DNA of 64,000 nucleotides, from the IMG/VR virus record IMGVR_UViG_2718218305_000006; one strand, 5' to 3'. The notes beneath the pieces were generated by a model. The model worked only from the letters and a program-made list of their open reading frames with translations. It did not search any database and had not been told where the DNA came from. Positions 14,691-16,004 of this stretch are shown here, piece after piece. The position numbers and the translations under genes are program-made. How positions within the stretch are numbered: position 1 is the first letter of the stretch; each line of letters starts with the position of its first letter. The DNA comes from a virus (Duplodnaviria; Heunggongvirae; Uroviricota; Caudoviricetes).

Positions 14691-16004
14691 ATGGCAGTAA
14701 AGATTTCAGGTGTACTGAAAGACGGCACAGGAAAACCGGTAGAGAACTGCACCATTCAACTGAAAGCCAGACGGACCAGCAGCACGGTGGTGGTGAACAC
14801 GGTGGCCTCTGAAAATCCGGATGAAGCCGGTCGTTACAGCATGGACGTTGAGTACGGTCAGTACAGCGTCATTCTGTTGGTGGAGGGCTTCCCGCCGTCA
14901 CATGCCGGGACCATCACCGTGTATGAAGATTCTCAACCCGGTACGCTGAATGATTTTCTCGGTGCCATGTCGGAGGATGACGTCCGGCCGGAGGCACTGC
15001 GCCGTTTTGAACTGATGGTGGAAGAGGTGGCGCGTCACGCTGAGGAGGCGAAGAAGAATGCCGGAGAGGCGGAGACGTCAGCGAGGAATGCCGGCATATC
15101 AGCCAGTCAGGCAGAAGAGAGCGCTGCAAATGCTGACACTTCAGCAGGGGATGCATCGGAGTCAGCCCGGCAGGCGGCAGAAAGTGCAGCCGCTGCAAAG
15201 CAGTCAGAGGAGGCGTCCTCGTCCTCGGCCTCTGCGGCCGCTCAAAAAGCCAGTGAGTCATCACAAAGTGCAGCAGAAGCTGAATTGTCAAGAAAGACGG
15301 CAGAAAGTGCAGCCGGTAATGCAGCCAGGGATGCAACGACCGCAGCAGAAAAAGCCCGGGAGTCAGCAGAAAGCGCACAGTCAGCGGAACAAAGCAGGAT
15401 AGCGGCGGAAGAGGCCGTAAACCGAATCCCCACCGTGGTGGGGCCTCCCGGGCCAAAGGGGGAACAGGGTCCCGCGGGTCCTCAGGGGCCGAAGGGAGAT
15501 AAAGGAGAGCGTGGCGACACCGGCCCGGCAGGGGCAACCGGTGAACGGGGGCCGGCAGGTGATGCTGGTCCGGCAGGCCCGCCGGGGCCGAAAGGTGACA
15601 GGGGAGAGCGGGGAGAGACCGGTCTGACGGGAAATGCAGGTCCACAGGGTCCAAAGGGAGATACCGGTGCGGCAGGCCCGGCAGGCCCACAGGGACCGAA
15701 AGGAGAAACAGGTGCGGCTGGCCCGGTGGGGGCGACCGGACCTCAGGGACCGAAGGGCGACCCGGGGGAGACGCAAATACGGTTCCGTCTGGGGCCGGGA
15801 AACATTATTGAGACAAACAGCCATGGCTGGTTCCCGGATACAGATGGCGCACTCATCACCGGACTGACCTTTCTTGACCCCAAAGATGCCACACGGGTTC
15901 AGGGTTTTTTTCAGCATTTGCAGGTCAGGTTTGGTGACGGGCCGTGGCAGGATGTTAAGGGGCTGGATGAAGTGGGCAGTGATACAGGCAGAACAGGAGA
16001 ATGA
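14691..16004 (+). CDS. stf: Side tail fibre protein with collagen-like Gly-X-Y repeat tract
   Basis: Ala/Ser/Glu-rich coiled region followed by about 36 Gly-X-Y triplets (residues ~253-362), then C-terminal globular domain; 54 aa longer than the copy at 58645. Confidence 0.8.

Follow-up and report, generated by a model that had tools for sequence, protein, structure and literature searches.

The window analysed here, a stretch of 64,000 nt, contains the tail modules of two lambdoid prophages, A and B, each of which carries a side tail fibre gene (stfA and stfB, respectively) with a collagen-like Gly-X-Y tract. The tracts differ in length, and the question raised by this locus is what kind of event separates the two alleles, in which direction it ran, and whether it serves to adjust the length of the fibre.

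Prophage context of the two genes

The two tail modules were 96.5% identical over positions 5405-15501 and 49362-59455, and the gene order J - lom - stf was the same in both prophages. Prophage B, with three nleG genes, a dinI-like gene and a truncated ydfJ beside it, matches Sp11 of E. coli O157:H7 Sakai (nleG2-3, nleG6-2, nleG5-2, ydfJ), and prophage A lies in tandem upstream of B, at the place of Sp12 in Sakai. The closest complete genome across the A/B boundary was that of O157:H7 strain Z885. No nleG genes follow stfA in the window, and Z885 carries a 1.4-kb nleC insertion at the equivalent place. As both the integrase and the RecE-family exonuclease at the left end of prophage B are truncated, this prophage is probably defective for excision. 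Short-unit arrays in the window (Table 1) lie inside a lambda-O-like replication gene, a DnaT-like single-stranded DNA-binding protein in the Z885 annotation, and are probably origin iterons.

Table 1. Features of the two stf loci and their surroundings, in coordinates of the window
Feature	Position	Strand	Basis and remarks
stfA, prophage A	14691..16004	+	437 aa from ATG; ORF, Pfam PfN + Collagen + PfC
PfN (PF08400) of StfA	14691..15089	+	Pfam
Putative PCoil of StfA, Ala/Ser/Glu-rich, low complexity	15090..15440	+	About 116-117 aa; sequence and length
Collagen (Col) tract of StfA	15441..15773	+	37 Gly-X-Y triplets, 111 aa; longest uninterrupted G-X-Y run
Left 28-bp repeat, GCGGGTCCTCAGGGGCCGAAGGGAGATA	15474..15501	+	Codes AGPQGPKGD; triplets 4-7
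162 bp (18 triplets) present in A, absent from B	15502..15663	+	DNA alignment; 15492-15653 equivalent
Right 28-bp repeat, GCAGGTCCACAGGGTCCAAAGGGAGATA	15636..15663	+	Triplets 22-25; 162 bp downstream of left repeat
PfC (PF06820) of StfA, C-terminal	15777..15968	+	Pfam
Stand-alone PfC ORF	16006..16275	+	89 aa; PF06820, E = 1.4e-35; starts 1 nt after stfA stop
Truncated integrase and truncated RecE-family exonuclease, left end of prophage B	17062-17613 and 17595-18839	-	Sakai/Z885 annotation
Arrays of 10-bp unit GTCACGACAT (4.5-4.8 copies) and 12-bp unit ACAGATAAAGAT (2.9 copies)	22753-22798 and 23033-23115		
stfB, prophage B	58645..59796	+	383 aa; listed ORF likewise extends to an upstream GTG
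Collagen tract of StfB	59395..59565	+	19 Gly-X-Y triplets, 57 aa; longest uninterrupted G-X-Y run
Hybrid junction repeat in B	59428..59455	+	All four left-repeat variants, then right-hand flank
Twin stand-alone PfC ORF	59798-60067	+	Starts 1 nt after stfB stop
NleG-family genes nleG2-3, nleG6-2, nleG5-2 (DUF1076, U-box type III effector)	60040-62181	+	Sakai Sp11 order

Domain organisation of StfA and StfB

PfN gave a full-length Pfam profile match in both proteins (E = 3.4e-69 in StfA and 4.8e-69 in StfB), Collagen (PF01391) was above its curated cut-off in both (2.8e-18 and 6.6e-10), and PfC was matched at 3.2e-35 in StfA and 5.4e-36 in StfB. Since the Collagen match is in frame with PfN and PfC, the Gly-X-Y stretch is the translated frame and not a chance run. 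Two antisense ORFs over the tract (14914-15690 and 15381-16289, minus strand) were rejected as by-products of the GC-rich periodic sequence, the plus frame holding the three Pfam domains. The ORF listing extends stfA to a GTG at 14685, and in that ORF the tract occupies residues 253-363; the start at 14691 is the RefSeq start of a 100% identical gene in strain 13E0780. The StfB protein is identical to WP_072612739.1 / APH98211.1.

Residues 1-93 of StfA matched the collar of Ur-lambda gpStf (PDB 9E7M, chain Ta) at E = 2e-51. Together with the location 3′ of J and lom, this match bears out the initial annotation of the gene as a side tail fibre homologue, and given the collar match the label is sound for the N-terminal half. 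BclA (1wck) was a weak PDB match to Stf. The composition and length of the stretch that follows PfN fit the 116-aa PCoil of the EPclA proteins (Table 2 of Ghosh et al. 2012, PMC3368898). Across homologues this part is length-variable as well, the collagen starting at residue 188, 210, 224, 251 or 264, and in some homologues (Shigella, EPclD-like) PfC is replaced by a Peptidase_S74 (PF13884) C-terminus.

AUC, MALLS, CD and EM of recombinant EPclA from Sakai showed a trimer in which the 111-residue Col forms a true collagen triple helix, with a Tm of 42 °C and measuring 28-30 nm in the electron microscope, and in which both PCoil and PfC act as trimerisation modules (Ghosh et al. 2012, PMC3368898). 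EPclA ECs2717 of O157:H7 Sakai is built of PfN, a 116-aa PCoil, a single Col and PfC, and its gene likewise follows J and lom. With 437 aa in total, 116 aa of putative PCoil and 111 aa of Col, the Col length of ECs2717, StfA matches the canonical EPclA dimensions, and a single uninterrupted (Gly-X-Y)n domain of the EPclA type was found in both StfA (37 triplets) and StfB (19 triplets). Judging from this domain order of PfN, putative coiled coil, collagen and PfC, both genes are predicted to encode EPclA-type trimeric side tail fibres, in which the PfC of StfA is a putative trimerisation module and receptor-binding knob.

StfA is also like the trimeric gpStf of Ur-lambda (PDB 9E7M), with a homologous collar, the same gene position and, after the collar, an Ala/Ser-rich stretch that in StfA is a putative coiled coil. 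In Ur-lambda, four Stf trimers dock through the collar on gpV/gpM at the tail tip and reach past the central fibre, and these side fibres speed adsorption without being essential, plaques forming in their absence (PMC12617516). The distal parts differ: lambda Stf lacks a collagen tract and carries a gp37-like receptor-binding tip that needs Tfa and binds OmpC, whereas the distal part of StfA and StfB is Col plus PfC. Neither PF03406 nor a gp37-like domain was matched in StfA or StfB, and the ORF downstream of each gene was PfC-only and not tfa, although it stands where the fibre chaperone gene tfa stands in lambda. This small ORF consists of a short N-terminal stretch and a PfC that is 34% identical to the PfC of Stf, and is annotated as "phage tail fiber C-terminal domain-containing protein". 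Its product may serve in fibre assembly or, as a subunit, may cap the PfC trimer or compete for a place in it.

Nature of the length difference

Protein and DNA alignments of A and B each contained a single in-frame gap, of 54 aa and 162 nt, respectively, without any other indel, in agreement with the 162-bp in-frame difference of the initial annotation. The tract of StfB consists of triplets 1-6 plus 25-37 of the long form; the placement of the gap is ambiguous owing to a 10-nt microhomology, AAGGGAGATA. The earlier counts of about 36 and 18 triplets were right as to the difference and low as absolute numbers, which are 37 and 19, since the tract ends then given stopped one triplet (GET), or 3 nt, early. 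The genes had also been described as otherwise identical, whereas stfA and stfB differ at 25 of 1152 nt and at 8 aa outside the gap, with 14 of the 25 nucleotide differences clustered within the last 270 nt.

Tandem Repeats Finder, the check that had been suggested for the tract, detected only a 45-bp period in 2.0 copies (84%) and a 9-bp period in 2.1-2.2 copies. Copies within the repeat families of the tract were 64-78% identical, and a head-to-tail array of near-identical DNA units, as looked for in a VNTR or contingency locus, was not found at the tract. The 54 extra residues of StfA, which start with GDK GER GDT, are unique sequence not copied from the flanks. The difference between A and B is one deletion between dispersed imperfect repeats, and not a change in tandem copy number. 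The observation of a length difference was thereby confirmed, and its interpretation was partly supported: an origin by slippage or recombination agrees with a junction in a short repeat, and the expansion and contraction of a tandem unit does not describe what is seen.

Anatomy of the junction

The left and right 28-bp repeats are identical at 24 of 28 positions, both coding for AGPQGPKGD, and the pair ties for best among the 1,683 in-phase 28-nt pairs in the tract. Since the hybrid repeat of B has left-type variants throughout and is followed by the right-hand flank, the crossover in B lies inside AAGGGAGATA (59446-59455). Prefix/suffix decomposition of the B tract placed the junction at offset 51-61, the rest of the tract containing 4 mismatches. 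Exhaustive enumeration of the deletions that preserve the 9-nt register in the A tract gave 3,006 distinct products, of which only 6 (0.2%) had a microhomology of at least 10 nt; the 10-nt match of B was among them. Thus the junction lies where a short-homology deletion is expected, given a microhomology in the top 6 and a best-tied 28-nt pair. The marks of such a deletion, a junction within a direct repeat, one hybrid copy and a microhomology above chance, were all found.

The longest exact match within the tract is 11 nt, and minimal efficient pairing segments are 31-34 bp for RecA and 23-27 bp for Red-beta (PMC3945230). As exact blocks of 10-11 nt are far below these lengths, ordinary homologous exchange is unlikely, which points to a short-homology route. 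The short allele B would have arisen by a single in-frame loss of triplets 7-24 between the 28-bp direct repeats, resolved inside the 10-nt exact match between them; for the enzymology, we infer that strands slipped and mispaired, switched template or annealed as single strands during replication. In E. coli, slipped misalignment at short direct repeats is a RecA-independent source of deletions described in the literature of the Lovett laboratory. The stf deletions, for which such a route is predicted, resemble these in that the repeats are imperfect (exact blocks of up to 11 nt), lie about 100-260 bp apart and leave one hybrid repeat. To choose between slippage, annealing and unequal exchange between prophage copies is a matter of inference. 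Prophage recombinases could contribute to the deletion, a RecE-family remnant being present in prophage B.

Because all partner repeats share the 9-nt Gly-X-Y register, deletions between them are in frame without selection. The five GPQ-GPK repeats of the tract differ at most synonymous sites, which argues against selection to keep them recombinogenic.

Allele series among homologues

Among the best 120 homologues listed, 37 distinct complete tracts with PfC were found, ranging from 8 to 37 triplets; the series is drawn from cluster representatives, and its counts are not population frequencies. Nearly all of the 37 tracts can be derived from the 37-triplet form by one deletion, leaving 0-4 residue mismatches, and the same few motifs recur at most of the junctions, namely GPQ-GPK-G[D/E], GPA or GPV-GAT. 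Two distinct 18-triplet deletions were present, one removing triplets 7-24, as in B, and the other triplets 18-35. Deletions of 9, 99, 108, 153, 162, 198 and 261 nt occur naturally, and all of these sizes are among the top-ranked microhomologies. Loss of 99 nt at an 11-nt microhomology gives the 26-triplet allele, and the 27-triplet allele of Sakai is the 26-triplet allele plus one GPA (9 bp), which is the only true one-unit slippage step seen among the alleles. The process proposed for B also gave rise to this natural series of 8 to 37 triplets, and it recurs at the same repeat pair.

The length polymorphism itself is already known. Col has 111 residues in every EPclA of Sakai and EDL933 except those of Sp11 and Sp12, where it has 81 (Table 2 of Ghosh et al. 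2012, PMC3368898), and Table 3 of the same paper adds Col lengths of 63, 78, 114 and 144 residues, all differing by multiples of three. The 57-residue (19-triplet) allele of StfB is absent from these tables, and repeat-mediated junctions and their recurrence are not described in that paper. As the longer alleles of 114 and 144 residues show that expansion also occurs, 37 triplets are not a fixed ancestral state.

The 19-triplet class was found with several mosaic PfC haplotypes at the protein level. Linked PfC haplotypes were considered as evidence for a single origin of this class and set aside as uninformative at that level, where recurrent deletion and recombinational reshuffling are inseparable.

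Recurrence and direction in other strains

The orthologous stf-nleG2-3 locus was compared in the 60 best complete genomes, with the window as reference. Net length differences were 0 in 2 records, +63 in 1, +72 in 20 and +161/+162 in 37. Four alleles, none of them from the +161 group, were inspected directly: Z869 carries 19 triplets, Z1504 26, Sakai 27 and Z885 37. Removal of 162 nt from the 37-triplet gene of Z885 gives the gene of O157:H7 Z869 without a single mismatch over 1152 nt, and in Z869 the direction from 37 to 19 triplets and the recency of the change are clear. The hybrid repeat of Z869 turns from left to right type at GGTCC, and not in AAGGGAGATA. Since this crossover differs from that in B of the window, this repeat pair has served on two or more occasions. 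For B itself, the change is most readily taken as a deletion too.

In a search of complete genomes at E <= 1e-18, a 60-mer across the Z869 junction matched Z869 and Z1812 only, and the 60-nt junction of B, with up to 2 mismatches allowed, was absent from all 5,426 complete genomes at the same threshold. Junction counts at E <= 1e-11 were set aside, as the query then aligns via the right-hand repeat of long alleles (691 genomes). Two unrelated draft assemblies (L009 and L010) carry 383-aa alleles with the private GGGCCC variant of B by the junction, in another prophage beside EspF-like genes. A single diagnostic base sets their junction apart from that of B, and either a point change or a third crossover could account for it. 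For the wider stfB region, the complete RefSeq genomes of E. coli in the collection gave matches of at most about 99%.

The tandem prophages of Sakai, Z885 and Z869 each have one allele in common, of 27/27, 37/37 and 19/19 triplets, respectively (in Z869 with the same junction in two places); the 37/19 combination of the window is the unusual case. The J, Lom and Stf proteins of the tandem copies in Z885 are identical, pointing to gene conversion between the copies. As noted above, stfA is 100% identical to the gene of strain 13E0780, where it lies in a prophage at another chromosomal site (pphA/yebW). Fibre alleles of this kind move between prophages.

Origin of the short allele and alternative explanations

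We put the probability at roughly 85% that the joint reading holds, in which both genes encode EPclA-type fibres and B goes back to a 37-triplet allele, lost triplets 7-24 by short-repeat deletion and was inherited or imported in that form. An assembly artefact, in which the B tract is a collapsed repetitive, GC-rich region or a chimera of the two tails and both copies are really of equal length, might be suspected since short reads resolve about 10 kb of tail sequence at 96.5% identity only with difficulty, a single contig is the one recorded source of the exact StfB protein, and none of the 5,426 complete genomes has the exact junction. Yet a 57-aa tract identical to that of B occurs in several independent protein clusters, its junction with the GGGCCC variant is present in the two draft assemblies, 19-triplet alleles exist at the orthologous locus in the complete genomes of Z869 and Z1812, the tract has no exact repeat longer than 11 nt to mislead an assembler, and B, with its 25 other differences, is not simply A with a hole, all of which leaves an artefact barely credible. 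Hardly more probable is the reverse direction, in which A gained 18 triplets over an ancestral 19-triplet form, either by duplication or by taking in sequence of another collagen gene. The junction by itself does not tell a gain from a loss and alleles of more than 37 triplets exist, but the 54 extra residues are not a flank copy, and many of the shorter alleles are contained within the 37-triplet sequence and lack one or another block of it, a pattern that is simple under deletion and otherwise requires many convergent insertions. The exact correspondence between Z869 and Z885, moreover, was found within a single O157:H7 lineage, where 37 triplets are the usual state.

Whether the deletion took place in this genome is a separate matter. 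Unequal exchange between the tandem copies, making B a direct derivative of A, would be favoured by their direct orientation, their spacing of 44 kb, their 96.5% identity over 10 kb and the homogenisation of the two copies in other strains; it is nevertheless unlikely in view of the 25 nucleotide differences outside the gap and of the GGGCCC variant, which is absent from A and common to B and the L009/L010 alleles in another prophage. Because of these differences from A and the occurrence of the junction type in a different prophage context in other assemblies, the deletion of B probably predates this genome, and short-repeat deletion in an allele that was inherited or imported would most likely account for it. 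We also consider it improbable, if slightly less so, that the tract is a contingency locus in which fibre reach is selected to fit host surface layers such as O-antigen or capsule. Rod length must scale with triplet number, the side fibres of Ur-lambda outreach the central fibre and touch the host first, and the alleles are quantised and recurrent. Against such tuning stand the divergence of the GPQ-GPK repeats at most synonymous sites, the 9-nt register that keeps the frame without selection, the dispensability of lambda Stf for plaque formation, and the frameshifts in several EPclA genes of Sakai and EDL933 (Ghosh et al. 2012, PMC3368898); lengths of 8 to 37 triplets also coexist in similar strains, and tandem copies usually share one allele. 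Frameshifts, coexisting lengths, shared alleles and dispensability look like relaxed constraint plus gene conversion.

Fibre length and significance

In the BclA protein of Bacillus anthracis and in streptococcal Scl1/Scl2, Gly-X-Y tracts have a strain-polymorphic number of triplets, and Sylvestre et al. reportedly found in 2003 that the length of the BclA collagen region sets the length of the exosporium filaments, a parallel that would favour length tuning in stf. These are cell or spore surface proteins with tracts nearer to true tandem repeats, whereas Stf is a virion fibre with a tract that is degenerate at the DNA level. For stf, an effect on fibre length is physically sound, as rod length scales with residue number (Ghosh et al. 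2012). With a collagen rise of 2.9 Å per residue, and 28-30 nm measured by EM for 111 residues (PMC3368898), the collagen rod would be about 32 nm long in A and about 16.5 nm in B. When a putative PCoil stalk of about 16 nm is included, B would lose roughly one-third of its stalk length.

As a polymorphism, the length variation of the tract is real but ordinary. What the present locus adds is a pair of tandem O157 prophages whose side-fibre alleles are both intact and differ from each other, together with a mechanistic footnote to the published polymorphism: the natural variants are those predicted from the best short homologies, and the same deletion has occurred at least twice. The stf tract could serve as a cheap strain-typing marker, and it calls for caution with short-read assemblies and with gene-presence pipelines, which place such alleles in separate clusters. 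It is doubtful that the collagen tract acts as a built-in length switch, in which five dispersed GPQ-GPK-G[D/E] repeats would allow quantised shortening, and occasional lengthening, at an appreciable frequency that is exploited to match the thickness of O-antigen or capsule. If it did, the switch would influence which strains receive effector-carrying prophages. More generally, if fibre length affects adsorption, the deletions described here would bear on the spread of effector-carrying lambdoid phages between E. coli lineages.
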